This document shows, in pieces, positions 412 to 34,615 of a DNA stretch of 34,615 nt. This stretch comes from a virus. The stretch's first letter is position 1; each line of letters opens with the position of its first letter. The translations under genes and the position numbers were made by a program. Under the pieces are notes generated by a model, which worked only from the letters and a program-made list of their open reading frames with translations, made no database searches and was not told the origin of the DNA. Location of the stretch: IMG/VR virus record IMGVR_UViG_3300031418_000062. One strand, 5' to 3'.

Positions 412-1020
412 GTGGCAAACAAAAGAGAACATAACGTCGCTTCTGCGCGCACCGGCCCCAGCCTCAAGAGCCTGACGTACTCGGCGGACCATAATCCGCT
501 CCTCAAGCCGAACAGCATCGAGATCAAGCGGCGCAAGGTACAGACCGGCGTGCGCGAGGATCTGACGGCCCCCGGCGAGGTGCGTGTGTCGGCCATCCAT
601 CAGATCATCGAGAAGGACGACGCCGAGTTCGTAAAGGTGTTTGCCGAAGGCGTCAAGGCTATGTTTGGCTTGAGCCGGACGGCCTACCGGGTGTTCCAGC
701 TGGTCCTGGCCAAGTACCAGGACGAGCCGATGGTTGGCGGCTATGCCGATTCGGTCTACCTGGCGTGGTTCGATGGTGGCCTGTCTGGCGTTGACGTCGG
801 TATGACCGACCGGACCTTTCAAACTGGACTGCGCGAGCTGCTGGGCAAGGGATTCCTGGCGCCGCGGCTGCCGAACGTGTTTTGGGTAAATCCCAGCCTG
901 TTTTTCAAAGGCAACCGGGTGGCCTTCATCACCGAGTACGTACGCAAAACTGGATCCGACGCGAAAAAGCGCGATCGCCTTGAAGCCCAGGGCCAGGGGC
1001 GCCTGGGCATGGGCGAATAG
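412..1020 (+). CDS. Putative winged-helix DNA-binding / RepL-like plasmid replication-maintenance protein
   Basis: 202-aa ORF with good GC3 bias. The central segment FVKVFAEGVKAMFGLSRTAYRVFQLVL...FQTGLRELLGKGFLAP...FWVNPSLFFKGNRV has the layout I associate with RepL-type winged-helix initiators (ending in the 'NP..FFKG' motif). The call is from memory and has not been checked with an HMM. Confidence 0.45.
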   Translation: MANKREHNVASARTGPSLKSLTYSADHNPLLKPNSIEIKRRKVQTGVREDLTAPGEVRVSAIHQIIEKDDAEFVKVFAEGVKAMFGLSRTAYRVFQLVLAKYQDEPMVGGYADSVYLAWFDGGLSGVDVGMTDRTFQTGLRELLGKGFLAPRLPNVFWVNPSLFFKGNRVAFITEYVRKTGSDAKKRDRLEAQGQGRLGMGE

Positions 1021-10197: not shown

Positions 10198-10671
10198 ATG
10201 GACGACCTGACCGCGCTCGAGGAGTGGGCCGGCGCCCTGCTGGCGAAGATGGAGCCGGCGGCACGCCGCAAGGTCGCCGTCGACGTGGGCCGCGAGCTGC
10301 GCCGCAGCCAGCAGAAGCGCATCGCAGACCAGAAGAACCCGGACGGCAGCGCGTACGCGCCGCGCAAGCCGCGCCAGGTGATGCGCGATGCCAGGTTGAG
10401 GGAAAAGGAAGGCCGGATAAAACGGCGCGTGAAGATGTTCGCCAAGCTGCGGACGGCTCGCTTTTTCAAAGTCGAGGCGAATAGCGACGGCCTGGCGATC
10501 GGTTTCCTGGGCCGCGCTGCGCGCCTGGCGCGCGTACACCAGGACGGCGAGACCGCCGAGGTGGCCCGCGGCGGCAAGTCGTATCGATATCCGGTCCGCC
10601 AGCTGCTCGGCCTGACCCCGGCCGAGCGCGAAATGATCCGGGAAAAGCTGCTGGACAATCTCACCAGGTAG
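10198..10671 (+). CDS. S: Virion morphogenesis / tail completion protein (P2 gpS family)
   Basis: 157 aa. The block QQKRIADQKNPDGSAYAPRK is typical of gpS-type morphogenesis proteins. Confidence 0.82.
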   Translation: MDDLTALEEWAGALLAKMEPAARRKVAVDVGRELRRSQQKRIADQKNPDGSAYAPRKPRQVMRDARLREKEGRIKRRVKMFAKLRTARFFKVEANSDGLAIGFLGRAARLARVHQDGETAEVARGGKSYRYPVRQLLGLTPAEREMIREKLLDNLTR

Positions 10672-10716
10672 CGCACCTGGTCGACGGCCAGCTGCTCGAG
10701 CTGGCCGGATCCGCGC
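10669..10716 (+). repeat. Dispersed palindrome-rich element, copy A (starts at the S stop codon, fills the S/methylase convergent gap)
   Basis: ctcaccaggTAGCGCAcctggtcgacggccagctgctcgagctggccggatcc shares ctcaccaggt and cctggtcgacggccagctgctcgagct with copy C. Confidence 0.8.
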
Positions 10717-10717
10717 C

Positions 10718-11470
10718 TTACGCGGCCAGGCGGTCGGGCACCGCGGCCAGGCGCTCCGACGCATCGGCATGGATGCGCGGGTTCATCTCACACCCCATCC
10801 AATTCAAGCCGGCTTCTTTCGCAGCCACCAGGAAGGTGGCCGATCCGGCGAACAGGTCGAGCACGGTCCCGCCCTCGGGCACCAGGCGCACCACCTCGCG
10901 CGCCAGGTCGACCGGCTTTTCCGTCAAGTGCCGTTTTGGAAAGTCCAGCTTGCACTGGAAAACGCCAGGCAGGTACACCTCCCGGTCGGGCATCGCGCCC
11001 TTGCTGGCCCAGACGATGAATTCCGCCTGTTGCTTGAAGCCGCTGCGGCGCGGCCGTGCGCGCCCTGTCGTCTTGTCCCAGACCGCGATCCCGCGCAGCG
11101 TGAAGCCGGCGGCCTGGATCACGTCGGTGAGCGCCGGCAGCTGCCGCCAGTCGATGAAGCACACCACCATGCCGCTGCTTTTCAACGCCCGGTATGCACC
11201 CGCCAGCCAGGTCTGGCACCAGAACAGCCAGGAACGCTGGTCCATGTTGTCGAAGTCGAAGTCCTCGTAGAGGTCCTGGGATGCGGCATTGAGATACTTC
11301 TTGCTGGTGGTGGCAGCGCGCGCAGCGCGATGCAGGCCGCCGGAACAATAGGGCGGGTCGGTTAGTAGCATATCGATCGAGCTGGCCGGCAGCTGTCGCA
11401 CGAATTCCACCGCATCGACCTGATGCAGGCGGTTCAAAAGGGGGGTGGTTTGTTCGGTTTGTTCAATCAC
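10718..11470 (-). CDS. Orphan beta-class DNA methyltransferase (N6-adenine or N4-cytosine)
   Basis: Motif IV (LLTDPPYCSGG) precedes motif I (VLDLFAGSATFLVAAKEAG), the beta-class order. No adjacent endonuclease is present. The start is uncertain: GTG at 11470, or upstream GTG/ATG as far as 11620. Confidence 0.85.
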   Translation of the reverse strand: MIEQTEQTTPLLNRLHQVDAVEFVRQLPASSIDMLLTDPPYCSGGLHRAARAATTSKKYLNAASQDLYEDFDFDNMDQRSWLFWCQTWLAGAYRALKSSGMVVCFIDWRQLPALTDVIQAAGFTLRGIAVWDKTTGRARPRRSGFKQQAEFIVWASKGAMPDREVYLPGVFQCKLDFPKRHLTEKPVDLAREVVRLVPEGGTVLDLFAGSATFLVAAKEAGLNWMGCEMNPRIHADASERLAAVPDRLAA

Positions 11471-11574
11471 GATAAGGGTCCAGGTTGCGTAGGGATCGGC
11501 GCGGAAGCGTCCCCCCGGACTCGCGCTCTGTAGGTATTTTCGACGCCAGCCGGCGCCGGTAGAACCTCGAGCTG

Positions 11575-11595
11575 TTGTGGCCGCTGCGGGCACAA
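11575..11595 (+). promoter_or_regulatory. Late-promoter activator dyad TTGTG-N11-CACAA upstream of V
   Basis: ttgtggccgctgcgggcacaa followed by ccgc, the same spacing and flank as the FI copy. A perfect 9-bp-stem hairpin (gccccgtgc...gcacggggc, 11601-11625) lies between it and the V start. Confidence 0.55.
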
Positions 11596-11640
11596 CCGCC
11601 GCCCCGTGCATCGCGCGCACGGGGCCTGCACCATGGCGGC

Positions 11641-19439: not shown

Positions 19440-22400
19440 ATGTCGAACGATCTGAGATTACGAGTGCTGTTCAACCTGGCCGACAGCATCACCGGGCCCC
19501 TGCGCAATATCCGGCAAGGGAACGACGACGTCGCCAAGTCTTTGCGGGAAACTCGGAACCGCCTCAAGGAGCTGAACAAGACCCAGGCCGAGATCGGCGC
19601 GCTGCGCGAGCTGCGCACCGGCATGGCGGCCACGGCCGGCGAGCTGAACGCGGCCAAGACCCGGGTGGCGTCGCTCGCCCAGGCGCTCCACGCAAACGGC
19701 CCGCCAACCCAGGCAATGGTCCGGGACTTCGAACAGGCCCGGACGGCCGCGCGCGCGCTGCAGGACCAGCACCGCCAGCAATACGTCCAGCTGCATCAAC
19801 TCCGCACCGGCCTGGCCGGCGCCGGCATCGACACCCGCAACCTGTCCCAGCACGAGCGCGACCTGCGCCAGAACATCCAGGCCACCACGGCCGACATGCA
19901 ACGCCAGCAGCAACAGCTGGCCGAGCTGGCCGCGCGCGAGCGCCGCCTGGGCGAGGCCCGGGCGCGCATGCAGCGCACCCAGGAGACCGCCGGCAAGATG
20001 ACCAGCACCGGCGCGGGCATGGCTGCAGCCGGCGCCGTCACCACGGCCGCGCTGTCGGTCCCTGTGACCGAATACGCGAAGGCCGAGGACTCGGCCACCC
20101 AGCTGTCCGGCGCCCTGATGCGCGCCGGCGGCGTGGTCCCTCCCGAGTTCGAGAAAATCAACGCCCTGGCCATGAAGCTGGGCGATCGCCTGCCCGGCAC
20201 CACGTCGGACTTCCAGGACATGATGACGATGCTGACCCGCCAGGGCATCTCGGCGCAGACCATCCTGGGCGGCATGGGCGAGGCGGCCGCGTACCTGGGC
20301 GTGCAGCTGAAAAAGACGCCGGCAGAGGCGGCCGAGTTCGCGGCCAAGATGCAGGACGCGACCAAGACCACCGAAAAGGACATGCTCAGCCTGATGGACG
20401 TGATTCAGCGGACCTTCTACCTGGGCGTGGACGATAACAACATGCTCAACGGCATGGCCAAGCTCAGCCCGGCCATGGACACGATCAAGATGAAGGGCCT
20501 GGAAGGGGCCAAGGCCGTGGCGCCGCTGCTGGTGATGGCCGACCAGTCCGGCATGGCCGGCGAAGCCGCGGGCAACGCCTACCGGAAGATCTTCCAGATG
20601 GGCATGGACAAGAAGAAGATCGACAAGGCCAACAAGGGTCTGGCGCCGGCGCAGCGCCTGGACTTTACCGATGGAAAGGGCGAATTCGGCGGCTTTGACA
20701 AGATGTTCAAGCAGCTGGACAAGCTCAAGGGCCTGACCACGCAAAAGCGCCTGTCTGTCCTCAAGGAAGTTTTCGGGGATGATGCCGAAACGCTGCAAGT
20801 CGTCTCCCTGCTGATGGAGAAAGGCGTCGACGGCTACCGCGAGGTGCAGGGCAAGATGGCCGCCCAGGCCTCCCTGCAGGAGCGCGTCAACCAGCAGCTC
20901 GGCACCCTGAAAAACCTGTGGGAAGCTGCCGGCGGCACCTTCACCAACACCATGGTGGCCTTCGGTGAAACGCTCGCCCCCGAATTGAAGGCAACCACGG
21001 AATGGCTCGGAGACACGGCCCAGAAGATGGGCGCATGGGCGCGCGAGAACCCGCGTTTGTCTGGTGGCCTGATGAAAACCGTGGCCGCCCTCGGGATCCT
21101 GCTCACCGTCGGCGGCGCGCTGCTGGTGATGCTCGGGACCGTCCTCGGCCCCCTGGCAATGCTCAAGTTCAGCCTGACCACCCTCGGCATGCAGGGCGGC
21201 CTCATGGCGAACGTGTTCCGGATGGCCATATCACCGCTCAAGCTGCTGGGCCAGGCCGTGCTATTCATCGGCCGCGCCATGCTGATGAACCCCATCGGCC
21301 TGGCAATCACCGGGATCGCCGTCGCCGCCTTCCTGATCTACAAGTACTGGGGCCCCATCAAGGAATTCTTTGGCGGTCTGTGGGACCAGGTGAAAGCCGC
21401 GTTCAACGGCGGCATCGGCGCGATCGGCGCCCTGCTGGTGAACTGGTCGCCAGCCGGGCTGTTCTACCGAGCCTTCGCCGGCGTGATGTCCTATTTCGGC
21501 ATCGACATGCCTTCCAAGCTGTCGCAGTTCGGCGCGAACATCATCACCAGCCTGGCCACCAGCCTGGCCCCGATCGGCGCCTTTGTCGGCGGATTGTGGG
21601 ACCAGATAAAGACGGCTTTCAACGGGGGCATCGGCTCGATCGGCGCCCTCCTGGCTAACTGGTCCCCGGTCGGGCTGTTCTACCAGGCCTTCGCCGCGGT
21701 GATGTCCTATTTCGGGATCGACCTGCCGGCCAAGTTCTCGACCTTCGGGGCGAACATCATCGCCGGCCTGGTCAACGGCATCACCGGCGGCCTGGGATCC
21801 GTCCAGACCGCAATCACGGCGGCCGCCGACAGCACGGTGGCCTGGTTCAAGGAAAAACTGGGAATCAAGAGCCCGAGCCGGGTGTTTGGCGAGCTGGGCG
21901 GCTTCATCAGCCAAGGCGCCGCTGTCGGGATCGAAGGCGAGCAGGGAAAGGTAGCCAAGGCGATCGCGGCCCTGGCAACGGTCGCCTCGGCCACGTTCAC
22001 GCCTGCTGTCACTGTTGCCGCCCAGCTGCCCACGACGCCGCCGGCGCAGCTGCAGCCGGTGGTGGCCGCGGCCAAGTCGCCGGCAGCGGCACCGGCACCG
22101 GCCCAGCTGCAGCCGGTGGTGGCCGTGGCGAAGTCGCCGGCAGCAGCGCCGGCACCGACCCAGCTGCAGCCAATGGCGGCCGCGGCCAAGTCGCCGGCAG
22201 CGGCACCGGCACCGGCCCAGCTGCAGCCAATGGCGGCCGCGGCCAAGTCGCCGGCAGCGGCGGCGGCGCCGGCCCAGCTGCAGCCGGTGGTGGCCGTGGC
22301 GAAGTCGCCGGCAGCGGCGGCGGCGCCGGCCCAGCTGCAGCCAGTGGCGGCCGCGGCGAAGTCGCCGGCAGCGGCGGCGCCGCCGGCCCAGCTGCAGCCG

Positions 22401-22925
22401 GTGGTGGCCGTGGCGAAGTCGCCGGCAGCGGCACCGGCACCGACCCAGCTGCAGCCAATGGCGGCCGCGGCCAAGTCGCCGGCAGCGGCGGCGGCGCCGG
22501 CCCAGCTGCAGCCGGTGGTGGCCGTGGCGAAGTCGCCGGCGGCGGCGGCGCCGGCCCAGCTGCAGCCGGTGGTGGCCGTGGCGAAGTCGCCGGCGGCGGC
22601 GGCGGCGCCGGCCCAGCTGCAGCCAGTGGCGGCCGCGGCGAAGTCGCCGGCAGCGGCGGCGCAGCCGGTGACGGCCGCGGCCAAGGCGTCGATCGTCAAC
22701 CCGGTCCCGATCGACACGCGCGCATCCGTGCTCACGCCGAAGGCCGGCGCAGGATCCGCAGCTGGCGGCGCCGGCGCTGCAGGTGGCGGGAATAACACGT
22801 ACACCATCAACATCAACCCCGCTCCAGGGATGGACCCGGCCGCGATCGCGCGCGCCGTGGCCGCTGAACTGGACCGCCGCGAGCGCGCGAAGCAGTCGCG
22901 CATCGGCTCGCGCCTGACCGATTGA
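19440..22925 (+). CDS. T: Tail tape measure protein (P2 gpT family) with an internal 72-aa duplication and an 11-copy 19-aa tandem repeat
   Basis: 1161 aa. It has a helical N-terminus, hydrophobic central segments and sits between E/E' and U. Confidence 0.92.
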   Translation: MSNDLRLRVLFNLADSITGPLRNIRQGNDDVAKSLRETRNRLKELNKTQAEIGALRELRTGMAATAGELNAAKTRVASLAQALHANGPPTQAMVRDFEQARTAARALQDQHRQQYVQLHQLRTGLAGAGIDTRNLSQHERDLRQNIQATTADMQRQQQQLAELAARERRLGEARARMQRTQETAGKMTSTGAGMAAAGAVTTAALSVPVTEYAKAEDSATQLSGALMRAGGVVPPEFEKINALAMKLGDRLPGTTSDFQDMMTMLTRQGISAQTILGGMGEAAAYLGVQLKKTPAEAAEFAAKMQDATKTTEKDMLSLMDVIQRTFYLGVDDNNMLNGMAKLSPAMDTIKMKGLEGAKAVAPLLVMADQSGMAGEAAGNAYRKIFQMGMDKKKIDKANKGLAPAQRLDFTDGKGEFGGFDKMFKQLDKLKGLTTQKRLSVLKEVFGDDAETLQVVSLLMEKGVDGYREVQGKMAAQASLQERVNQQLGTLKNLWEAAGGTFTNTMVAFGETLAPELKATTEWLGDTAQKMGAWARENPRLSGGLMKTVAALGILLTVGGALLVMLGTVLGPLAMLKFSLTTLGMQGGLMANVFRMAISPLKLLGQAVLFIGRAMLMNPIGLAITGIAVAAFLIYKYWGPIKEFFGGLWDQVKAAFNGGIGAIGALLVNWSPAGLFYRAFAGVMSYFGIDMPSKLSQFGANIITSLATSLAPIGAFVGGLWDQIKTAFNGGIGSIGALLANWSPVGLFYQAFAAVMSYFGIDLPAKFSTFGANIIAGLVNGITGGLGSVQTAITAAADSTVAWFKEKLGIKSPSRVFGELGGFISQGAAVGIEGEQGKVAKAIAALATVASATFTPAVTVAAQLPTTPPAQLQPVVAAAKSPAAAPAPAQLQPVVAVAKSPAAAPAPTQLQPMAAAAKSPAAAPAPAQLQPMAAAAKSPAAAAAPAQLQPVVAVAKSPAAAAAPAQLQPVAAAAKSPAAAAPPAQLQPVVAVAKSPAAAPAPTQLQPMAAAAKSPAAAAAPAQLQPVVAVAKSPAAAAPAQLQPVVAVAKSPAAAAAPAQLQPVAAAAKSPAAAAQPVTAAAKASIVNPVPIDTRASVLTPKAGAGSAAGGAGAAGGGNNTYTININPAPGMDPAAIARAVAAELDRRERAKQSRIGSRLTD
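22041..22664 (+). repeat. In-frame tandem repeat, 11 copies of 57 nt (one copy 54 nt), encoding PAQLQPVVAVAKSPAAAAA-type units inside the tape measure gene
   Basis: Units start at 22041, 22098 and so on, with period 57. The copies differ by a few substitutions (V/M, A/P). Confidence 0.95.
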
Positions 22926-23346: not shown

Positions 23347-24360
23347 ATGCGACAGCCTACCCCTGATTTCGTCGTCACCCTGGACGGCAAGAACCTCAGC
23401 AGTAAGCTGGCCCCGCGCCTTATCAGCCTGACGATCAACGAATGCCGCAGCGATGAAGCCGACATGCTCGACATCGTTCTCAACGACAGCGACGGCCAGC
23501 TGGCCCTGCCGTCCCGCGGCGCCGTCCTGGCCGTGTCCATGGGATGGGCTGGCCAGCCCCTGGTCGACAAGGGCACGTTCACCGTGGATGAGGTCGAGCA
23601 CAGCGGGTCCCCGGATATCCTCACCCTGCGCGCGCGCAGCGCGTCCATGACCAAGAACATGGGCACGCGCCAGGAAAAAAGCTGGCACGGTCAAACCCTG
23701 GGCGGCATCGTGAAGGCGATCGCCGGCAAGCACAGCCTCAAGCCGGTGATAGGCGACCAGCTGGGCAAGATCGTGATCCCGCACATCGACCAGACCCACG
23801 AAAGCGACATGGCCTTCCTGACGCGCCTGGCGAAACGGTACGACGCCGTTATGACTGTGAAGGAAGGCAACCTGCTGTTCATGCCGATCGGCCAGGGCGA
23901 GACCGCCAGCGGGAAAAAGCTGCCGGTCATCAGCATCACGCGCAAGGACGGCGACCAGCACCGGTACCACGTTGCCGACCGCGAGAACTACGAGGGCGTG
24001 CGCGCCTACTGGCACAACGGGAAGAAGGGCAAGCGCAAGGAGGTGATCGTGGGTGGCGAGGTGAACCGCAACACCAAGACGCTGCCCGAGACCTACGCCA
24101 CCGAAGCCGAGGCCAAGGCGGCGGCGACGTCGGAATACAAGCGGGTCAAGCGCGGCCAGGCGGTGATGGGCTATACCCTCGCCCTGGGCCGGCCCGAGAT
24201 CCGGCCCGAGCTGCAGGTATCGGTCAGCGGCTTCAAGCCCGAGATCGACGGCACTACCTGGCTGGTCCAGCGCGCAAGCCACACCATTTCGGATGGCGGC
24301 CTGTCTACATCGCTCGAGCTCGAGACGAGCGAAGCCGCAGACCAGGGCAAGACCAAGTAG
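23347..24360 (+). CDS. D: Tail protein / late control protein D (P2 gpD family)
   Basis: 337 aa, starting TAAATG-adjacent to U. PDFVVTLDGKNLSSKLAPRLISLTI...DEADMLDIVLND is the gpD signature. Confidence 0.9.
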   Translation: MRQPTPDFVVTLDGKNLSSKLAPRLISLTINECRSDEADMLDIVLNDSDGQLALPSRGAVLAVSMGWAGQPLVDKGTFTVDEVEHSGSPDILTLRARSASMTKNMGTRQEKSWHGQTLGGIVKAIAGKHSLKPVIGDQLGKIVIPHIDQTHESDMAFLTRLAKRYDAVMTVKEGNLLFMPIGQGETASGKKLPVISITRKDGDQHRYHVADRENYEGVRAYWHNGKKGKRKEVIVGGEVNRNTKTLPETYATEAEAKAAATSEYKRVKRGQAVMGYTLALGRPEIRPELQVSVSGFKPEIDGTTWLVQRASHTISDGGLSTSLELETSEAADQGKTK

Positions 24361-24470
24361 CGCGCCGGCGCCGCGGCCGCGCACCTGGTGCGCACCTGGT
24401 CGACGTCCAGCTGCTCGAGCTCGAGGCCTGCGCGATCGCCGCCGGCGCCGGCCGGCACCGATCACGGCCC
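24358..24470 (+). repeat. Dispersed palindrome-rich element, copy B (starts at the D stop codon)
   Basis: TAGCGCGCCGGCGCC...gcacctggtgcgcacctggtcgacgtccagctgctcgagctcgagg..gcgatcgccgcc is about 90 percent identical over ~80 nt to the reverse complement of the 138-bp tandem unit at 33641-34054. Confidence 0.85.
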
Positions 24471-24687
24471 AGGGTGAAGCAGCGTCCACAACTTCACCAG
24501 GTAATACCCGGCCCTCATGAGCTGGGAGAGGCAGGCACTGGCCTGGCGGGCAATTCTCAACTTTCGCATATCGTTTCCTTTCGGGTTGAACCGATACGAT
24601 GACCTCGATCGGCGCCGGATTCCTCTGGTGGGTTTTCCGGCAAGGAAATTCTGCTGTCACGACGGCGCGGTACGTATAGCCGGCGGC

Positions 24688-24822
24688 TGTCTAACAAACC
24701 ACGGTTTTTTAGACACTCAACAAGAAAGGGCCAACCGGCCCTTTTTTCACACTGGAAGTGTCTAAAAACCCTGTATAGTTTTCTATGTCTAACAAACCAC
24801 GTTGAAACTTAATTTTTATACA
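24688..24822. promoter_or_regulatory. Cluster of TGTCTA-type half-sites (candidate res/operator site) upstream of the recombinase operon
   Basis: A 28-bp near-perfect palindrome, TGTCTAACAAACCacGGTTTTTTAGACA, lies at 24688-24715. Further half-sites are TGTCTAAAA (24759), TGTATAGTT (24772), TGTCTAACAAACCACG (24786, an exact repeat of 24688-24703) and an inverted TGTATAAAA (24814-24822). Confidence 0.55.
24725..24747 (+). terminator. Short GC hairpin plus T6 (possible terminator of the tail operon), embedded in the TGTCTA cluster
   Basis: aaagggcc aacc ggccctttttt. The A-run upstream could make it bidirectional. The stem is only 5-6 bp. Confidence 0.5.
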
Positions 24823-25075: not shown

Positions 25076-25527
25076 AAACCGTTCTTATGATGCCGCGCCG
25101 CTTCGGCCGGACCGCGATCGCGCGCGCGCTGCGCGCCACCGGCGACGACCAGCTGACGCCCGAGCAGTACCGGGCGCTGTTTCAAGGCGAATTCTCGATC
25201 GAGGCCAAGGACCGCGAACTGGTGGCCCTGGCCGAGGAGTACGACCGCCGCACCGAGCTATACGACCGCACGGTCTGCACCGGCCCGATCGGACCGGATG
25301 GGATCATGCCGGCGACGCCGGCCGAGCTCGCGGCGATCAACAGGCACGCCGACCAGGTGCGGCGCGAGCTGGTCGACCGCGCGATGCGCGCCGGCTTCAC
25401 CGCGGCGCAGTTCAAGGAAGCGATGATGCACCAGGTGCGGCAAGGCCCCGCGGCCGTGGCCGCGCAGGCGGCGCGCCAGGATCGCCCCCCGACCTGGATC
25501 GGGATGGACTTCGGGAAGGAGGCGTAA
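25072..25527 (+). CDS. Hypothetical protein (151 aa)
   Basis: Translationally coupled at both ends (ATGA at 25072, TAATG at 25525-25529) with high GC3. No recognisable motif. Confidence 0.55.
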   Translation: MKTVLMMPRRFGRTAIARALRATGDDQLTPEQYRALFQGEFSIEAKDRELVALAEEYDRRTELYDRTVCTGPIGPDGIMPATPAELAAINRHADQVRRELVDRAMRAGFTAAQFKEAMMHQVRQGPAAVAAQAARQDRPPTWIGMDFGKEA

Positions 25528-26171
25528 TGCGACACCCGACCGCCACCAACAACCTGGACATCATCACCGGAGGCCTGCTGATCGGCTACGCCCGGGTGTC
25601 CACGGTCGACCAGAACCTGGACCTGCAGCGGGACGCCCTGCAGCGCGCCGGGTGCGGCCAGATCTATGAGGACAAGGCCAGCGGCCGCGCGAAGTCGGGC
25701 CGGCCCGAGCTGGCGGCCGTGCTGCGCGCGCTGCGCGCCGGCGACACCCTGGTGGTCTGGCGCCTGGACCGCCTGGCGCGATCGCTGGTCGACCTGGTGC
25801 AGATCATCAACGAGCTGGGAGAAAAGGGGATTGGCTTCAAGAGCCTGACGGAACAGATCGACACCTCGAGCGTGCAAGGCCGGTTGTTCCTGGGCGTGTT
25901 CGCAGCCATGGCGCAGTATCAGCGCGACGTCATCCACGAAAACACGATGGAGGGATTGAAGGCAGCTCGAGCACGCGGTCGCATGGGCGGCCGGCGGTCG
26001 AAGCTGGGAGAACAGGAGATCCGGGAGATCGAGGCGCTGTTGAAGGATCCGCAGATCACCGTGGTGGACGTGGCCAAGCGCTACGGGGTGAGCCGGGCCA
26101 CCATTTACAACGCCCTGGGGAAGAAACAGCCTACCGCACAGCTCGCACTACCGAGTGGCAATAGCCAATGA
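25527..26171 (+). CDS. Small serine recombinase (resolvase/invertase family)
   Basis: IGYARVSTVDQNLDLQRDAL (catalytic Ser motif), LVVWRLDRLARS and a C-terminal HTH (VAKRYGVSRATIYNAL). At 214 aa it is the size of a Tn3/Hin-class enzyme, not a large serine integrase. Confidence 0.93.
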   Translation: MRHPTATNNLDIITGGLLIGYARVSTVDQNLDLQRDALQRAGCGQIYEDKASGRAKSGRPELAAVLRALRAGDTLVVWRLDRLARSLVDLVQIINELGEKGIGFKSLTEQIDTSSVQGRLFLGVFAAMAQYQRDVIHENTMEGLKAARARGRMGGRRSKLGEQEIREIEALLKDPQITVVDVAKRYGVSRATIYNALGKKQPTAQLALPSGNSQ

Positions 26172-27846: not shown

Positions 27847-30624
27847 ATGGCTAATATTGACGAAGTAAAACGGATCGTAAACCCTCGGCTGCATGACCTG
27901 GCCTCCAGGCTCGGCATCAAGCAGGGAAAGGGTGGCGACGATGCGCTGTATCACTCGCCGCACCACCCCGACAAGAATCCCTCCCTGTCGATCTACATCG
28001 ACCATCCCAAGCACGGCACCGGCTGGAAGGACCACAGCGGCGACGCCGGCGGCTCCTGCATCGACATGGTGATGTTCACCCAGGGCTGCAGCGCCTCCGA
28101 TGCCCTGAAATACCTGCACCAGGAATACGCGATCCCCTTCGACACTCCGGATAAGCCGGCCCAGGAAAACAAGAGCATGGTCGAGTACATTGCCGACCGC
28201 TGCATCGCCGCCCGCGAGAAGGTGCGGGACTACCTGCAGGGCCGCGCGATCGGCGCCGGCGCGATCGATGCCGCGCTGCGCGCCAAGACCCTGGGATTCA
28301 ACGAATGGACCAGCCCGAAGAAACAACCAGGTGAGGTGGGCTATGGCGGCCCGGCTGCGGCCTTCATCGTGCGCTCGCCCGACACCAGCCAAGTGGTGGC
28401 CGTCGACATGCGCTTCCTGGATCCGGCCCAGAATGGCGACGTCAAGACGCAGGCCCAGGGCGAGAAGGACGGCTACTACTGGACCGCCGACCCCCGCAAG
28501 CTCGAGCGCGCCCAGCGCGTGTACGTGGTCGAAAGCCCGATCAACGCCCTGTCGATCGACACCTGCAGCATCCCCAAGACTGCAGCGATCGCCCTCCGCG
28601 GCCTCAGCAACGCGTCGACCATCGACCTGGCCTTCCTGCAGGGCAAACAGGTGGTGATCTGCATGGACAACGACGAGCCCTTCCCGGACGGCCACCAGCG
28701 CGCCGGCCAGCGTCCCGGCCCAGAGGCCGCCTGGATCCTGTACGAGCGCCTGACCGCCATCAACATCAGCGCAGTCCTGGTCGACCAGGAGGAGTGGGAC
28801 AAGGTTGAAGGCGACGAGAACGGCGGCAAGCCGATCAACGACGTGAACGACTACCTGCAGGCGCGCGGCGCGCAGAAGCTGGCCAAGGCCCTGGACACCT
28901 ACGAGACCTGGCTGATCGCCGGCATGGCCGGCAACGTCTCGCGCAAGGGCCGGGCGCGCGTCTACCTGCCAGCACACGATTACGCCCAATACTGGAAATT
29001 CCGGCCGCACCTGGACTTCACCAAGTACATCGCCAGGATGGACGAAAACAAGGAAACCGGCGACGAGACCCCGATCTACCACGACCTGTGCGGTTTCCGG
29101 GTCGCATCCCTGAGCCGGGTATCGGTCGCCAGCTCGACCGCCACCATGACCGGCGATCGGGACCACTCCCCTACCGTGTACTTTTCCGTGACGGTCCAAG
29201 TTCCCCGCCACGGCCCCGAGCTGGTCCGCAAGGTCCTGATGGACGACCAGCTGCACAACACGAACACCTGGACGAAGTTCGGCCCGATCTGGAAGCCGGC
29301 CGAATTCTCGCGCATGGTGAGCATCCTCGAGCGCACCGCGGATCTCGGCGCACGCAAGGCCGCCAACTTCGTGGGCCTGGCCTGGCTCGACGGCCGCCTG
29401 GCTGTCAACGAGGGGCCGGACTGCTATTTCACCGAAGCCGAGAAGCAATGCACGTATCACAACCTGACGTTCCCTTCCGGGCCGACCGCGAACGCGCGCA
29501 GGGTCATCAAAGCGTATCAGGCCACCTACACCAGCAACGCCGGCGCGATCCCCCTGGTCTGGGCACTCGGCGGCCACCTCAAGGCCTTCCTGGGATTCTG
29601 GCCACACATCACGATGCAGGCCGACAAGGGCGCCGGCAAGTCCACCCTGGTGAAGCGCCTCGAGCGCTCCCTGGCCTTCACCATGTTCTCGGGCCAGAGC
29701 CTGCAGACGGAATTCCGCCTGATGACCAGCATCAGCTACACCAGCCATCCGGTTGGCTGGGAGGAGCTGAGCGCCCGCCGCACCGACGTGATCGACAAGG
29801 CCGTGGCGATCCTGCAGGAGTCGTATCAGTACACCACTACCAAGCGCGGCTCCGAAATGACCGAGTTCCTGCTGTGCGCGCCGGTGATGCTGGCCGGCGA
29901 GGACGTGCCCGTTAAGAGCCTCACCGGCAAGGTGGTCCGGACGGATCTGACCAACAAGGCCAACGGCTTCATGGCCGACGACCTGCCCCACTTCCCAGTG
30001 CGCCAGTGGCTGGAATTCCTGACCAAGCTCGACAAGGCCACCGTGCTGGAGAAGTACGCCGGGCTGCGCGAGTACTGCCTGAAAAACAGCCGCGCCGGCG
30101 GCGACGACAGCGGCGCCAGGCGCATGGCCGGCAACTACGCGGCCGTGCTGCTGGCCTGGGGACTCCTGGCCGAGTTCGCCGGCATGGACTATTCCGAAGG
30201 TGCATTCGGCAAGGACCTCCTGGCCGAGATGAACGCCCATATTTCGGAGACCAGCAGCGACCGCTCGCCGTGGGTCTGGATCATGGAAACGGCGCTGTCC
30301 GAGATCGACGCCAGCAACTTCAAGCACCCGTACAAGTTCGAAGTGGTGGACGGCAAGGATTGCCTGCTGGTGCGGCCGCAGCACATCATGGACCACCTGT
30401 CGAGCTCCTCGAGCCTGCGCGAGAAGTGGAATTCTCTGCCGGTCAAGACCGCTGCAGTGTTCAAGCGTCAGATGATGTCGGCCGGGATCCTGTTGCTGGA
30501 CGAAGCCGGGAAGCCCAAGGAACTGGAGCGGACCATTTTGATGCGCCGCGTTGGCCACCTCTCCGCGATCCCGCTCGAGGCCTTGAACAACTTCGGCCTG
30601 TCGGTCGGCTGGCGGAACGAGTAG
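27847..30624 (+). CDS. Bifunctional primase-helicase-like replication protein (degenerate zinc-finger region, toprim domain, P-loop NTPase)
   Basis: 925 aa. Toprim motifs VYVVESPINALS and VVICMDNDEP, and Walker A ADKGAGKST. The overall layout resembles P4 alpha / DUF927-type phage-plasmid primase-helicases. Confidence 0.85.
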   Translation: MANIDEVKRIVNPRLHDLASRLGIKQGKGGDDALYHSPHHPDKNPSLSIYIDHPKHGTGWKDHSGDAGGSCIDMVMFTQGCSASDALKYLHQEYAIPFDTPDKPAQENKSMVEYIADRCIAAREKVRDYLQGRAIGAGAIDAALRAKTLGFNEWTSPKKQPGEVGYGGPAAAFIVRSPDTSQVVAVDMRFLDPAQNGDVKTQAQGEKDGYYWTADPRKLERAQRVYVVESPINALSIDTCSIPKTAAIALRGLSNASTIDLAFLQGKQVVICMDNDEPFPDGHQRAGQRPGPEAAWILYERLTAINISAVLVDQEEWDKVEGDENGGKPINDVNDYLQARGAQKLAKALDTYETWLIAGMAGNVSRKGRARVYLPAHDYAQYWKFRPHLDFTKYIARMDENKETGDETPIYHDLCGFRVASLSRVSVASSTATMTGDRDHSPTVYFSVTVQVPRHGPELVRKVLMDDQLHNTNTWTKFGPIWKPAEFSRMVSILERTADLGARKAANFVGLAWLDGRLAVNEGPDCYFTEAEKQCTYHNLTFPSGPTANARRVIKAYQATYTSNAGAIPLVWALGGHLKAFLGFWPHITMQADKGAGKSTLVKRLERSLAFTMFSGQSLQTEFRLMTSISYTSHPVGWEELSARRTDVIDKAVAILQESYQYTTTKRGSEMTEFLLCAPVMLAGEDVPVKSLTGKVVRTDLTNKANGFMADDLPHFPVRQWLEFLTKLDKATVLEKYAGLREYCLKNSRAGGDDSGARRMAGNYAAVLLAWGLLAEFAGMDYSEGAFGKDLLAEMNAHISETSSDRSPWVWIMETALSEIDASNFKHPYKFEVVDGKDCLLVRPQHIMDHLSSSSSLREKWNSLPVKTAAVFKRQMMSAGILLLDEAGKPKELERTILMRRVGHLSAIPLEALNNFGLSVGWRNE

Positions 30625-30725
30625 CGCGCCGGCCGGCGCCGACCTGGTGGGCCAGCTGCTGCAGCGGCTCACCAGGTCGACGGCCAGCTGCTCGAGCTCG
30701 AGGCGATCGCCGTCGAGTCGGATGC
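30622..30725 (+). repeat. Dispersed palindrome-rich element, copy C (starts at the primase-helicase stop codon)
   Basis: TAGCGCGCCGGCCGGCGCCgacctggtgggccagctgctgcagcgg ctcaccaggtcgacggccagctgctcgagctcgaggcgatcgcc. Both sub-motifs of the 138-bp unit are present, in the reverse-complement orientation. Confidence 0.85.
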
Positions 30726-30910: not shown

Positions 30911-31216
30911 TTACCTGTTCGCCTCGCGTTCCTCGGCCGCGATGAAGCGCGAGACCGCCAGCGCGAACGCTGCCGCACGGCTGAGGCCAAGCGCGGCGGC
31001 CTTGTTGTCCAGTGCCGCCAGGATATGCGCGTCGATCGTCAAGCTGATCGGCTTCTTTCTGCCGCCTTTCGGAATCAACGCCGGCGCCGGCGTCGACGTC
31101 GCACTCGGCTTAGCGTCCGGCGCGGCGCCGATGAGGGCCGCGACCTGATCTTCGGTTACGCCTGGCTTGAGCCCTGCCGGATTGCTACCTGGGCGGGGCA
31201 AGATTTTCGATACCAT
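30911..31216 (-). CDS. parG: Ribbon-helix-helix (ParG/CopG-like) partition adaptor / centromere-binding protein
   Basis: 101 aa immediately downstream of ParA. It has a disordered Pro/Ala-rich N-terminus and then KPISLTIDAHILAALDNKAAALGLSRAAAFALAVSRFI, an RHH pattern. Confidence 0.65.
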   Translation of the reverse strand: MVSKILPRPGSNPAGLKPGVTEDQVAALIGAAPDAKPSATSTPAPALIPKGGRKKPISLTIDAHILAALDNKAAALGLSRAAAFALAVSRFIAAEEREANR

Positions 31217-31256: not shown

Positions 31257-31916
31257 CTACTTTGACCTGTCCGCGAATGCGCGAATGTCCTCGAGCAGGT
31301 TGTACATTTCGTTGCGGGCGTCCGGTGGTGCGCCCTTGAATTCGCTGATATGACGGCCGGCCGCGCTGGCATGGGAGAACGCCTTGCGATCGCCCAGCCT
31401 GCATTTGCTGATCTCAAAACCAAACTGAGACACATATTCAATCGACGCCTCGTTGTCGGCCTCTTGACCAGCTGGATCCGCCTTGTTCAGGAAAGCCAAC
31501 ACCTTGAAGTCTTTCACCTGCTGCATTTCCCGGGCCAGATTCACTGTATTTTCGAATGCCCACACATCGAACGAGCGTGGAGCAAACGGAAACACCATCA
31601 CGTCACACAGCGACAACGCGGCCCGCATCGCGCCTGAATCCTTTGCCCCCACGTCGATAACCACGTCATCGAAGTTCCCCGCCTGCAGGAGCACCTGGGC
31701 ACGCATGGACGGGCCATCCGTCAGCGGCACCGATGGGATCCCAGGCAAATCCGCCAGGATCCGGGCGGTAAGGGCCAGGTGCATGGAGGTCTGTTCATCG
31801 TCCCCATCGACCGCCCAAACCCTACGCCCGGCCAGGGACAAGCCGGTCACCAGTTGCACCGAGGTGGTGGACTTGCCAACGCCGCCCTTTTTATTCGCTA
31901 CTGCATAGATTGTCAT
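31257..31916 (-). CDS. parA: ParA-family partition ATPase (small, type Ib-like, no N-terminal HTH)
   Basis: The deviant Walker A AVANKKGGVGKSTT is at the extreme N-terminus. VWAVDGDDEQTS is also present. 219 aa. Confidence 0.9.
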   Translation of the reverse strand: MTIYAVANKKGGVGKSTTSVQLVTGLSLAGRRVWAVDGDDEQTSMHLALTARILADLPGIPSVPLTDGPSMRAQVLLQAGNFDDVVIDVGAKDSGAMRAALSLCDVMVFPFAPRSFDVWAFENTVNLAREMQQVKDFKVLAFLNKADPAGQEADNEASIEYVSQFGFEISKCRLGDRKAFSHASAAGRHISEFKGAPPDARNEMYNLLEDIRAFADRSK

Positions 31917-31983: not shown

Positions 31984-32343
31984 TTATGATTGCGTTTCAG
32001 TATTTTCGACCAGGATAGCCAATAGTTCACGCTGACGCGCCAGGGCCTCAGCGATCGCGTGGCGGACATGCATGACCTCGCCCTGCCGACCGTTGCCGTT
32101 CTCGATCTGGCGCGCGACCTCGGCGGCATCATCCAGGGTGAAGCGAGTCGCCAGCTGGGGCAGCTCGGGGCGTGGGTTGGTCGCTTCGCCTTCGACCACA
32201 TCGAAGGCCAGTGGCAGACCCTGGCATACCACCACATAGGCCTCGGGCAGCGGCGCGTCGAACAACGCGTCAAGGGTCATTTCGTAGCCGGTGATCGCGG
32301 CGCGGGTTTTCTCCAGCATGTTGTTCCAATCGGTCATGTTCAT
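31984..32343 (-). CDS. Hypothetical protein (119 aa) upstream of parA
   Basis: ORF with high GC3, co-oriented with parA/parG. No recognisable motif. Confidence 0.55.
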   Translation of the reverse strand: MNMTDWNNMLEKTRAAITGYEMTLDALFDAPLPEAYVVVCQGLPLAFDVVEGEATNPRPELPQLATRFTLDDAAEVARQIENGNGRQGEVMHVRHAIAEALARQRELLAILVENTETQS

Positions 32344-32421: not shown

Positions 32422-32628
32422 CTATCGGCGCGCCGGAAGCGATCGCAAGTGCATCAAGGCCGCTTTCTCGCACTCGCGCAGCGTGTCGGCCTGGCCGGCT
32501 GCAGCGCCGCGCACCCATACGAACGGATTCGGCTCGCCGGCGACGATCGAGCGCCGGATCTCAAATTCCGCTGCAACGGTAGGATGCAACGGGGTGATGC
32601 GGGTGTAGACCGCTGGCACATGGCACAT
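32422..32628 (-). CDS. Hypothetical protein (66-68 aa)
   Basis: ORF with aaaggaaaa 4-5 nt upstream of tandem ATGs and good GC3 bias. It is short, so weakly supported. Confidence 0.35.
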   Translation of the reverse strand: MCHVPAVYTRITPLHPTVAAEFEIRRSIVAGEPNPFVWVRGAAAGQADTLRECEKAALMHLRSLPARR

Positions 32629-32663
32629 GGTTTTCCTTTCGTTCTGGACTTGATGCGCTGATT

Positions 32664-32751
32664 GTATCTCTACATCATGTTGATATCAACATGAGATTGA
32701 ATAAATATTTATATCGTATCTACTTGATGTTAATACCATGTTGATATTAAG
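32664..32751. promoter_or_regulatory. AT-rich cluster of TTGATATCAA-type boxes (centromere/origin candidate)
   Basis: An 18-bp perfect palindrome CATGTTGATATCAACATG (32676-32693), then cttgatgttaatac (32723) and CATGTTGATATTAAG (32737-32751). The preceding GTATCT..TAC context is duplicated (32664 and 32715). Confidence 0.55.
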
Positions 32752-32880
32752 CGACACTAGCGCCCGCCTCGAGCCATGCCCAGCACCTGGTCGACCCCGC
32801 GGCCGCCTATGAAACCGGGCCAAGACGGCGCCGGCGGCCGCCGGTTTCCACTCGCCAGCAGCAGGGCACAGGCAGCACAG

Positions 32881-33256
32881 AAAACCCGGGGATTTATGCC
32901 CTCTTGTGACGTAAGTCATTGATTCTTGAGCAACTACCATCCCCGAACTACCCCCGAAAATCCCCGGATATGCTGAGTTTTTCCACGGCGGGCCTCATTT
33001 CTTCCATGGTTGTGGCCGGCGCCGTCCTCCTACTTCTTTCTTTTTTTTAGCTATGAAAAGAGAGAGGAATAGAGGGAAGGAAAGAATTTCGCGCATCCCC
33101 GACCCGCACCCGCATTTCCCCGACTTTTCCCCGCTGCCTAAATTTTCATCCCCGGGTTCCCCGACCTTTCCACGGCCTTTTCGTGGATGGTGGGGGATGG
33201 AAATTTCTTAGGAATCAGGTACTTACGCCAACATCCACGGCATCCCCCGATCCCCG
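32881..33256. repeat. Iteron-like cluster of (A/T)TCCCCG(A/G) motifs (at least 10 copies) flanking a polypyrimidine/polypurine dyad
   Basis: TCCCCG occurs at 32940, 32961, 33096, 33117, 33128, 33149, 33158 and 33251. CCCCCG occurs at 32951 and 33244, with an inverted copy at 32881-32895. TCCACGG occurs at about 32982, 33168 and 33234. The Py tract is 33025-33048 and the Pu tract 33055-33086. Confidence 0.7.
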
Positions 33257-33640
33257 GCGTGCGCTGCCTGGGGGGTGTTCGGGTTCCTTTTTCTGAGCCA
33301 TAGGGTTTTGCCCCTCGCTAGAACGCATCAAAACCGCCTACAGGCGCATCAAACCGCATCAGGTGACGCGGCCAGCAAATCGGCTGAAGGCCGCACCAGG
33401 CCTGTTTCCGGCCGGCTCCTGGGGCTGCATTAGAACCAGGCCCCCAAGCGAAGCCCGGAGGCGGGGAGGGGCCTCCGCAGCAGCGGGGCAGGCGGCCTTG
33501 CCTTGGGGATCCCCCTCCAGGAGCCCCAGGGGGCCGCCCAGGGCGTCGCAGGCGCTGCGCACGGTGCGCGGACGCTCTGCGGCACCTCCAACCGTGCGCG
33601 CGTCATAGAGGCCCGTTTGATGCGTCTGGCCAGGTGCATT

Positions 33641-34054
33641 GGCGGCGATCGCACGCCTCGAGCTCGAGCAGCTGGCCGCCGACCAGGTTGCGCACCAGGT
33701 GCGGCCGCGGCGCCGGCGGGATCCTGCAGCTGCAGCAGCTGGTCGACCAGGTGGATCCGACCCGGGCTGGCCAGCGCCGGCGGCGATCGCGCGCCTCGAG
33801 CTCGAGCAGCTGGACGCCGACCAGGTTGCGCACCAGGTGCGGCCGTGGCGCCGGCGGGATCCTGCAGCTGCAGCAGCTGGTCGACCAGGTGGATCCGGCC
33901 CGGGCTGGCCAGCGCCGGCGGCGATCGCGCGCCTCGAGCTCGAGCAGCTGGACGCCGACCAGGTTGCGCACCAGGTGCGGCCGCGGCGCCGGCGGGATCC
34001 TGCAGCTGCAGCAGCTGGTCGACCAGGTGGATCCAGCCCGGGCTGGCCAGCGCG
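33641..34054. repeat. Three tandem copies of a 138-bp unit built from perfect palindromes
   Basis: Units start at 33641, 33779 and 33917 and differ by only a few substitutions. Each contains GCGATCGC, CTCGAGCTCGAG, CAGCTG, CTGCAGCTGCAG, CTGGTCGACCAG, GGATCC, CCCGGG and TGGCCA. Confidence 0.95.
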
Positions 34055-34060
34055 CCGAGC

Positions 34061-34088
34061 GTGTTTGTGTTTGTGTTGTTGTTTGTGT
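34061..34088. repeat. GT-rich microsatellite (gtgtttgtgtttgtgttgttgtttgtgt)
   Basis: Low-complexity TG/TTG tract directly abutting the tandem array. Confidence 0.85.
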
Positions 34089-34129
34089 CGTCCAGGTGCG
34101 TGGACTGAACAGCAGGCTTGCATGGGTTA

Positions 34130-34168
34130 CGCATCCTGGTGCGTAGTACTGCGCATCCTGGTGCATAG
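34130..34168. repeat. Two 17-bp direct repeats CGCATCCTGGTGC(G/A)TAG spaced 22 bp start to start (iteron-like)
   Basis: 34130-34146 and 34152-34168. A related cgcatcctcggcgc lies at 34447-34460. Confidence 0.75.
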
Positions 34169-34488
34169 GTGTAGTAAAAGCCAACGGGACACCTGCCCGC
34201 GCTCCCGCTTGGGTTGCGCACCGATTTCCTACGGAAACCGGCACGCCCGGTTACGCGGGTGAACCCGTAAAATCAAAACCCGAAAACCCCGAAATGCAAC
34301 TAACCCATGACTCGGCCAGCGACACAGGCAGGCCACCAGGTTGGAGGCCGCCCTACAGGCCGTTGATCTGACGGCAGGGGCGATTTGAGTCCGAGGACCG
34401 ATGCCGAAGGCGAGGGAGCGAGGATGGCCCGTTAGGGCCACCCCTGCGCATCCTCGGCGCTCCTCCAGAGCGTCCGGTTGTTAGCGGG

Positions 34489-34615
34489 TGATCTGCTGGT
34501 GTTGAGTCTACAAGGGAGGCTGTGGCCTCCCGTACCTTGTGCGCCGCGCTTGCGCGGGGCAGTCTGGTTCTATTCTCCAGGCTGAACAACGGCCGGCCGG
34601 CCTGAAGTGGCGCGC
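34489..34615. repeat. Terminal exact repeat, copy 2 (identical to 1-127)
   Basis: Same comparison as for copy 1. Confidence 0.95.

Follow-up and report, generated by a model that had tools for sequence, protein, structure and literature searches.

What is the palindrome-packed tandem array at positions 33641-34054 of IMG/VR virus record IMGVR_UViG_3300031418_000062, and what, if anything, does it do for the element that carries it? The window, meaning the whole stretch of 34,615 nucleotides that was analyzed, is the complete circular genome of a KS14-like plasmid-prophage of the P2 family. An earlier note on this DNA had described three 138-bp units built of concatenated palindromes and had offered a centromere, an origin or handcuffing array, a cruciform and amplified host DNA resembling repetitive extragenic palindromic (REP) sequences as candidate roles. 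The reading favored here, tentatively, is that the array is an amplified repeat of the type represented by REP sequences, REP doublets forming hairpins (REPINs) and bacterial interspersed mosaic elements (BIMEs), with at most an accessory function, and that its known copies all lie inside one phage clade. The array is a curiosity and not a new system: an unusual setting, a phage-plasmid, for a known kind of repetitive DNA.

Structure and palindrome content of the array

The window was searched with Tandem Repeats Finder, which returned 3.0 copies of period 138 at 33641-34053 with 97% matches and no indels. A gap-free repeat search placed the copy starts at 33641, 33779 and 33917 with identities of 100, 97 and 96%, bearing out three tandem units that are 96-97% alike. 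Unit 1 (33641-33778) comprises half A (approximately bases 1-68) and half B (approximately bases 69-138), unit 2 (33779-33916) is the one that two-unit assemblies (L219 and L220, described below) lack or have lost by recombination, and the final bases of unit 3 (33917-34054) diverge into a GT-rich tract; no strand is assigned to the units. Every unit contains the palindromes CTCGAGCTCGAG, CTGCAGCTGCAG, CTGGTCGACCAG, GCGATCGC, GCCCGGGC, GCTGGCCAGC, GGCGCC, CAGCTG (twice) and GGATCC (twice), and all of those named in the earlier note were found.

Palindrome density was compared with shuffled sequence and with the rest of the genome. Perfect palindromes of at least 6 bp covered 121 of 150 bases in the array, against 33.7 ± 12.3 in dinucleotide-preserving shuffles (0 of 2000 reached the observed value), in agreement with the exceptional density that had been claimed. 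Other 150-bp windows of the genome had a mean coverage of 27 and a maximum of 95, the maximum being a partial copy of the array element itself. The array unit is 80% palindrome-covered. Part of this density comes from a triplet rhythm of the form S-W-S (CTG, CAG, GAG, CTC, GTC, GAC etc.; S, G or C; W, A or T), yet the observed coverage of 106 exceeds what in-register triplet shuffles gave (33 ± 13, at most 84).

Palindromes are next densest within the tape-measure gene (1161 aa, 19440-22925), where 11 copies of a 57-bp repeat (22039-22668; 89% matches, ~80% G+C) encode an Ala/Pro/Gly-rich repeat. Two motif-based explanations of the array were also considered and set aside: a Chi-like hotspot (GCTGGTCG, CACCAGG), for which the match to E. 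coli Chi was imperfect, and a methylation or restriction-site cluster (CCWGG, GATC), for which the supporting gene is absent from the window.

Within the unit, two similar sub-motifs were located 68 bp apart. At this spacing they fall in different frames, as the earlier note had it, and the unit is for the same reason taken to be an old duplication of two ~69-bp halves; the triplet registers of halves A and B are offset by one base. The dyad core CAGCTGGTCGACCAGGTG (33874-33891) is symmetric at 16 of 18 positions and recurs at 33736-33753 and 34012-34029. Spacing of the motifs is irregular (12, 52 and 74 bp in the window) and differs in every relative. The 138-bp unit can also be described as a ~92-nt module followed by a 46-nt linker with a related dyad. 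The module runs across the unit boundary (33903-33997, minus strand), is ~95% identical to 24358-24455 and is predicted to close into a hairpin of -54.5 kcal/mol (z-score -1.4). Each unit boundary in the array re-forms such a closed hairpin, of the type seen in dispersed copy 2 below (-50 to -54 kcal/mol, z -0.9 to -1.4).

No stop codon interrupts any of the six reading frames in the array, as previously described, and a gene caller placed an ORF (open reading frame) of 217/263 aa over it. A protein of 46-residue repeats would suit a period that is a multiple of three and a codon phase with 92% G+C, but this reading is barely credible. The S-W-S register shifts by one base between the halves, leaving no single codon-like frame across the unit. 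In the homologous regions of five relatives, stop-to-stop ORFs match the window at low identity in every frame, which indicates similarity of DNA rather than of protein; the frame is conserved in none of the relatives, and close relatives differ in the array region by an 82-bp indel. Among 5.8 billion proteins the ORF had no homologue except its own two-unit version, and it matched no Pfam or PHROG family. The judgment that coding is unlikely therefore held.

Dispersed copies at gene ends

A sensitive self-search of the window recovered three partial copies outside the array, all inverted relative to it. The box GGTCGACG(G/T)CCAGCTGCTCGAGCT(C/G)G is common to the array and the three dispersed copies and is dyad-symmetric at all four loci. 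Copy 1 (10669-10717, plus strand) fills the 46-nt spacer between convergent genes at 10198-10671 (plus) and 10718-11620 (minus), with a predicted hairpin of -26.8 kcal/mol (z -2.9). Copy 2 (24358-24455, plus strand) follows the TAG of a gpD-like tail gene, precedes a convergent small ORF (24462-24569, minus strand), is ~95% identical to the array over 92 nt and folds into a 95-nt hairpin of -60.6 kcal/mol (z -2.1). Copy 3 (30622-30716, plus strand) lies after the TAG of the primase-helicase gene and before the convergent par operon; it consists of a B-like part followed by an A-like part, and its two hairpins total -59.2 kcal/mol (z -3.5).

Each dispersed copy starts at a TAG stop with GTAGCGC, accounting for three of the four plus-strand occurrences of this 7-mer in the genome. 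The copies fill all three of the convergent-gene spacers, an arrangement with a chance probability of ~5e-4 even when placement is limited to non-coding DNA, a value that rests on a rough gene list. All three copies fold better than shuffles; the array unit does not.

Among relatives (contigs designated L001 and so on), copy 1 is kept in the L001/L261 lineage and absent in L289; L139 has a shorter copy 2 at the corresponding position, and L140 and L142 have none; and copy 3 is absent in L001. None of the dispersed copies was found in the more distant relatives examined. This pattern indicates that the family grew along the branch leading to the window. The proposal of amplified host REP-like DNA in the earlier note thus fared unevenly: a dispersed family of hairpins at gene 3' ends supports the REP-like part, and the host part is no more than a candidate, the copies found all lying inside the phage clade.

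The small ORF that converges on the gpD-like gene beside copy 2 encodes 35-39 aa (…YYLV(K/R)LW…) and has a homologue in L140 (~2505-2625), with none in L139 or L142. It may be a membrane or toxin-like moron.

The same hairpins could belong to a selected transcription barrier, with the array serving as a GC-rich hairpin stack against leftward read-through from the portal-terminase operon/cos side, insulating the ori/par region, and with single copies terminating convergent operons. Single copies occur in every convergent spacer with hairpins of -27 to -61 kcal/mol, the unit boundaries of the array contribute the closed hairpins described above, and the array is oriented to minus-strand portal/terminase transcription as the single copies are to their upstream genes. 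This agreement of orientation is, however, a 1-in-2 chance. No U-tract follows any copy, the fold of the array equals that of composition-matched shuffles, and relatives manage without the array. A selected barrier was accordingly rated as quite improbable.

Copy number in near-identical genomes

The exact RepL protein of the window was present on four other contigs. L219 and L220, which are complete-length contigs from other samples, carry 2.0 units each, compared with 3 in the window. On the repL side both show 100% identity to the window across ~5 kb, and in L219 another 3 kb upstream matches at 99.9%. Unit 2 is absent from L219, and the first unit of L220 is a recombinant of units 1 and 2. 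The three units of the window can be told apart, unit 2 carrying a private single-nucleotide polymorphism (SNP; T at position 68). The start of a Logan contig falls within the last unit. The copy-number variation that the earlier note had proposed looking for in long reads was thus found, in assemblies, as two units in L219 and L220.

Either unequal exchange expands and contracts the array, or short-read assemblers collapse units; the distinct SNP patterns favor real haplotypes. That the three-copy structure itself is a short-read assembly artefact was considered very unlikely. The 138-bp unit is near the assembly k-mer, the terminal overlap of the window is 127 bp, other contigs are named k141, and the Logan contig is broken within the array. 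Against this, the private SNP distinguishes the units, three independent assemblies each contain two units or more, and the element family also occurs as single copies elsewhere in the window.

In the mechanism proposed, the array would be a tandemly amplified member of a small, GC-rich, palindrome-built repeat family that spread within the phage lineage. Single copies may act as 3'-end hairpins (barriers to transcription or RNA decay) or may merely be tolerated at gene ends. The 138-bp unit would have been duplicated by unequal recombination or slippage, and the array would then behave as a variable-number tandem repeat. It would be dispensable for partition, replication and packaging, and any effect would probably be accessory, such as host-protein binding or a block to read-through into the ori/par region.

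Conservation of the dyad core in relatives

Relatives were collected by exact search with the 21-mer CAGCAGCTGGTCGACCAGGTG, which gave four viral contigs and, among 71 metagenome matches, six related ones (two repeated). Searches with RepL independently recovered several of the core-bearing relatives, as well as L005, L007 and L008. None of the diverged relatives with the core had the 138-bp tandem array; they retain only the dyad core CAGCAGCTGGTCGACCAGGTG and ACCWGGT heptamers. Palindrome coverage at the locus in relatives is 40-67 per 100 bp, at or above the 95th percentile of each genome, compared with 75-97 in the window. The array and the core are both absent from L007, L008 and KS14.

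The region appears to have been rearranged repeatedly. In the L001/L251/L281 lineage the GT-rich tract is inverted (CA-rich; L001 5400-5435, L281 4660-4695) together with an adjoining CG(T/C)CCAG(G/C)TGC, a sign of local inversion between palindromic repeats. In L005, ACCAG(G/A)TGG flanks an insertion of 82 bp. Together, the inversion and the insertion show the region to be recombinationally plastic. Separately, L281 (4830-5060) and also L251 carry a zinc-finger gene (MKNCPECG…) after the core region, in place of the hairpin block and cos described below; its product, judged by eye, is presumably MqsA/YgiT-like, and the gene shows a mosaic junction at the repeat region.

Evidence weighing against a REP-type repeat

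Several results count against the favored reading. The first group concerns sequence constraint. The 21-27-nt core (CAGCAGCTGGTCGACCAGGTG) is identical in the window, L001, L003, L004, L233, L281 and L289, although the flanks are 70-76% identical or unalignable; L005, found through RepL, has the core with 2 mismatches. No 7-mer family other than that of ACCAGGT, which is palindromic except for its central base, occurs two or more times in each of the four lineages (2-4 per 180-400 bp, where 0.03-0.19 would be expected), and ACCAGGT is 20-30x enriched in every lineage. An invariant core and this enrichment point to constraint, which a protein-binding site would explain at least as well as selfish DNA.

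The second group concerns copies and mobilizing genes outside the clade. BLAST searches with the array and the unit against 72,556 plasmids/chromids and 50,697 phages returned nothing at E 1e-5 and noise at E 10. A degenerate pattern gave at least 120 matches in species-representative genomes, and among the matches listed all were single, in genomes unrelated to the window and without extended similarity. The metagenome scan for the core yielded 65 unrelated single matches inside long ORFs encoding QQLVDQV or HLVDQLL, and a 24-nt A-box pattern yielded one unrelated coding match in IMG/VR. Among the window ORFs there was no transposase-like gene, REP-associated tyrosine transposase (RAYT) included.

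The third group concerns architecture. Halves A and B are direct repeats, and BIME units are inverted. The box shared with the dispersed copies is not consistently the hairpin arm, so the copies are not textbook REP doublets. Folding of the unit and of the whole array equalled that of shuffles (z +0.40 as DNA; -0.91, +0.20 and +0.49 as RNA).

The last result also bears on the suggestion of a cruciform-forming element. For the unit itself, z was +0.4 when folded as DNA and between +0.2 and +0.5 when folded as RNA, no global dyad symmetry was found in it (51% complementary, equal to shuffles), and the array had no Rfam match. A cruciform or structured RNA was rejected on these grounds.

The conserved core supports the main rival account, in which the array is a multi-site platform for a dimeric phage or host protein that would recognize the dyad ACCTGGTCG-(0-1 nt)-CGACCAGGT. 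Tandem sites could then serve handcuffing, incompatibility or copy-number control, or act as a P4-crr-like enhancer or a roadblock, and the sites at operon ends would be comparable to mycobacteriophage stoperators. Such a platform is possible, if doubtful. The identity of the core in the window and six relatives despite unalignable flanks, the recurrence of ACCAGGT alone among 7-mer families and the dyad symmetry of the shared box at four loci all argue for it, as do the position of the array in a replication/maintenance control region and the resemblance of ~130-bp direct repeats with three short motifs each to P4 crr. Conservation is, however, inflated by the ascertainment of L001-L004 through an exact search for the core, and duplication followed by divergence can by itself yield enrichment of motifs in one orientation. 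Motif spacing is irregular, copy number changes freely among identical genomes, and some relatives lack the array entirely. No candidate protein co-varies with the core: a search for a partner by presence and absence in the relatives gave none, RepL, ParA, the ribbon-helix-helix (RHH) protein, orf119 and the primase all occurring with and without it.

A more far-reaching reading was also weighed, in which the phage-plasmid has its own proliferating dyad family read by a dedicated phage or host protein, single copies acting as stoperator-like or terminator-like roadblocks at the end of every convergent unit and the variable cluster near the plasmid origin titrating the protein to tune replication, copy number or incompatibility, as a quickly adjustable control of the plasmid-prophage state. 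This was regarded as unlikely.

Genome organization and the maintenance region

The window begins and ends with the same 127 bases (1-127 and 34489-34615), so it represents a circular assembly, 34,488 bp in length. The closest DNA matches of this P2-family myovirus, at ~75% identity, are P2-like phages of Burkholderia and Ralstonia. Genes for ParA with an RHH protein, a RepL-family protein, a CI-type repressor, a serine recombinase and a Toprim primase-helicase are present, and no tyrosine integrase was found among the window ORFs scanned. The ParA-type partition ATPase gene (31257-31916, minus strand) forms an operon with orf68 (32422-32628), orf119 (31984-32343) and the RHH-like orf101 (30911-31216). 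The RepL-family replication protein (202 aa; 412-1020, plus strand) has as its nearest relatives the Rep proteins of 2.7-9.6-kb plasmids, several of which are named RepL; these small plasmids shared no DNA with the array region. Gene order in the window agrees with that of Burkholderia phage KS14, a P2-like phage for which maintenance as a plasmid was shown experimentally (PMC3091744).

The array lies in the non-coding stretch from the par operon to repL (2.3 kb, or 2.7 kb counted round the circle), confirming its reported position between the par genes and the RepL-like gene and beside a GT tract. From left to right, the stretch holds AT-rich par repeats, an ATCCCCG block, GCATCAAA repeats, the array, the GT-rich tract, 22-bp repeats, a hairpin block and a cos-like sequence. 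The array is ~850 bp from repL, with cos in between, and ~1 kb from the par promoter.

The predicted -35/-10 of the par promoter are overlapped by AT-rich dyad repeats (CATGTTGATATCAACATG and CATGTTGATAT, 32660-32745), which are kept in KS14 and are likely to be the operator and centromere for the RHH protein (orf101) and ParA. An assignment of the array as the centromere (parC/parS) of the ParA/RHH system was therefore given very little weight. The array is repetitive and palindromic and belongs to the non-coding region that precedes the par operon, but the par promoter, 1 kb away, has its own, different repeats (CATGTTGATATCAACATG and related). Moreover, the array is not co-inherited with the system: ParA occurs in KS14, L007 and L008/L015, accompanied in KS14, L007 and L015 by a detectable RHH homologue, and none of these relatives has the array or core. 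A type Ib partition centromere, and with it the centromere role raised in the earlier note, was rejected for these reasons.

ATCCCCG/TTCCCCG repeats around a 60-bp purine/pyrimidine-skewed AT-rich tract (32880-33280) are located ~360-760 bp upstream of the array. This block is kept in L001, L003, L007 and L008, and as ATCCTCG in KS14, and it looks like a plasmid replication origin. KS14, L007 and L008 retain the ori-like block, cos and a Rep gene despite lacking the array. The suggestion that the array is a classical origin or iteron array, i.e. regular 17-22-bp repeats by rep with an AT-rich element, found no support, given its irregular motif spacing and its distance from repL, from which it is separated by cos.

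The remaining features of the stretch are as follows. GCATCAAA repeats (33320-33630) precede the array. The GT-rich tract (34061-34088, plus strand) adjoins it and occurs in most relatives. The 22-bp repeats, two in number (TTACGCATCCTGGTGCGTAGTA and a variant; 34121-34170, plus strand), each form a dyad around CCTGG and are related to repeats near or upstream of rep in relatives. A hairpin block (34185-34290) between the array and cos is 83-92% conserved in seven relatives. Its hairpin, CCGATTTCC-TAC-GGAAACCGG, shows compensatory changes in L001/L004 (TTCCC/GGGAA) and L007 (TTTCG/CGAAA). Nothing in Rfam matched the block, which might function as a small RNA, in single-strand initiation or in packaging. 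The sequence GCGCGGGGCAGTCT (~34540-34565), in or next to the terminal overlap, is presumably the counterpart of the cos site of P2.

A role of the array as the res site of the serine recombinase was also rejected, as Gin/Hin-like sites are found at 24690-24815 instead. Three sites with the half-site TGTCTAA(C/A)AAACC are present there, the first being a 28-bp dyad, TGTCTAACAAACC-AC-GGTTTTTTAGACA, which we take to resemble Gin/Hin crossover sites (AAACC-NN-GGTTT). The serine recombinase encoded at 25527-26171 probably uses them as its res or dimer-resolution site. A canonical terminator, AAAGGGCCAACCGGCCCTTTTTT, lies between them.

Implications

Families of the REP/REPIN type are regarded as features of bacterial chromosomes, and here a self-contained family with a variable cluster is found on a 34-kb P2-like plasmid-prophage. 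If the elements are host-derived, repeat-mobilizing machinery of the host acts on extrachromosomal prophages, and such repeats offer a route to infer the hosts of uncultured phages. If they are the phage's own, they provide a compact model for the origin of a repeat, its spread to gene ends and its amplification. In practice, the array is a natural marker of the variable-number tandem repeat type for this phage, and short-read assemblies will break at it or miscount its units.

Comparison with known systems

KS14 and the window share synteny of the portal gene, Rep gene, cos/non-coding region, ParA with a small repressor, primase, CI and serine recombinase. Also common to both are the AT-rich par repeats, the GCATCAAA repeats, an AT-rich tract accompanied by ATCC(C/T)CG repeats, and a GC-rich island whose palindrome content exceeds background. 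KS14 differs in having no 138-bp array, core dyad or comparable dispersed family, and its Rep has no similarity to the RepL of the window by tblastn.

The crr region of P4 and iteron control arrays such as P1 incA offer ~120-140-bp direct repeats with three short motifs each, distant from the replication gene, in an element with a primase-helicase. The array differs from these in having no matching origin motif cluster, in its irregular spacing, in that ACCWGGT is itself palindromic, and in being dispensable in relatives. Stoperators of mycobacteriophage L5 are short sites at gene boundaries with a fixed orientation to transcription, plus a regulatory cluster, and number roughly 24-30; the gyrase-binding par locus of pSC101 is a cis-acting repeat/hairpin locus next to a plasmid origin and needs no centromere-binding protein to work. 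Both resemble the present case in layout, but the sites here are far fewer than the stoperators and the sequences are unrelated.

With E. coli BIMEs and the REPIN clusters of Pseudomonas fluorescens SBW25, the family shares short GC-rich palindromic units that lie outside genes, at 3' ends or in convergent spacers; these are predicted to form hairpins of ~50-95 nt, have GTAG in the head, recur several times in a replicon and have proliferated in particular lineages. Tandem REPIN clusters of SBW25 consist of near-identical tandem repeats that include flanking sequence (PMC3116915); the array likewise has 2-3 units at 96-97% identity with flank and a polymorphic copy number. REP sequences reach tens to hundreds of copies in a host chromosome and are associated with a RAYT. 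The differences are that only four loci are present, all on a 34-kb phage-plasmid, with no chromosomal copies found and no RAYT nearby, and that the halves of the array are direct, the fold of the unit is not above chance and the shared box is not consistently a hairpin arm. The alternating inverted orientation of BIMEs is not seen in the array, and the GTAG head of REP sequences is found on the three single copies, where it overlaps the TAG stop, and not on the array itself. Membership in the class is not established by these features. Even so, palindromic units, 3'-end hairpins in convergent spacers, a GTAG-type head, proliferation within a lineage, a tandem cluster and a polymorphic copy number together make REP/REPIN elements, with their tandem clusters, the best fit among known classes.

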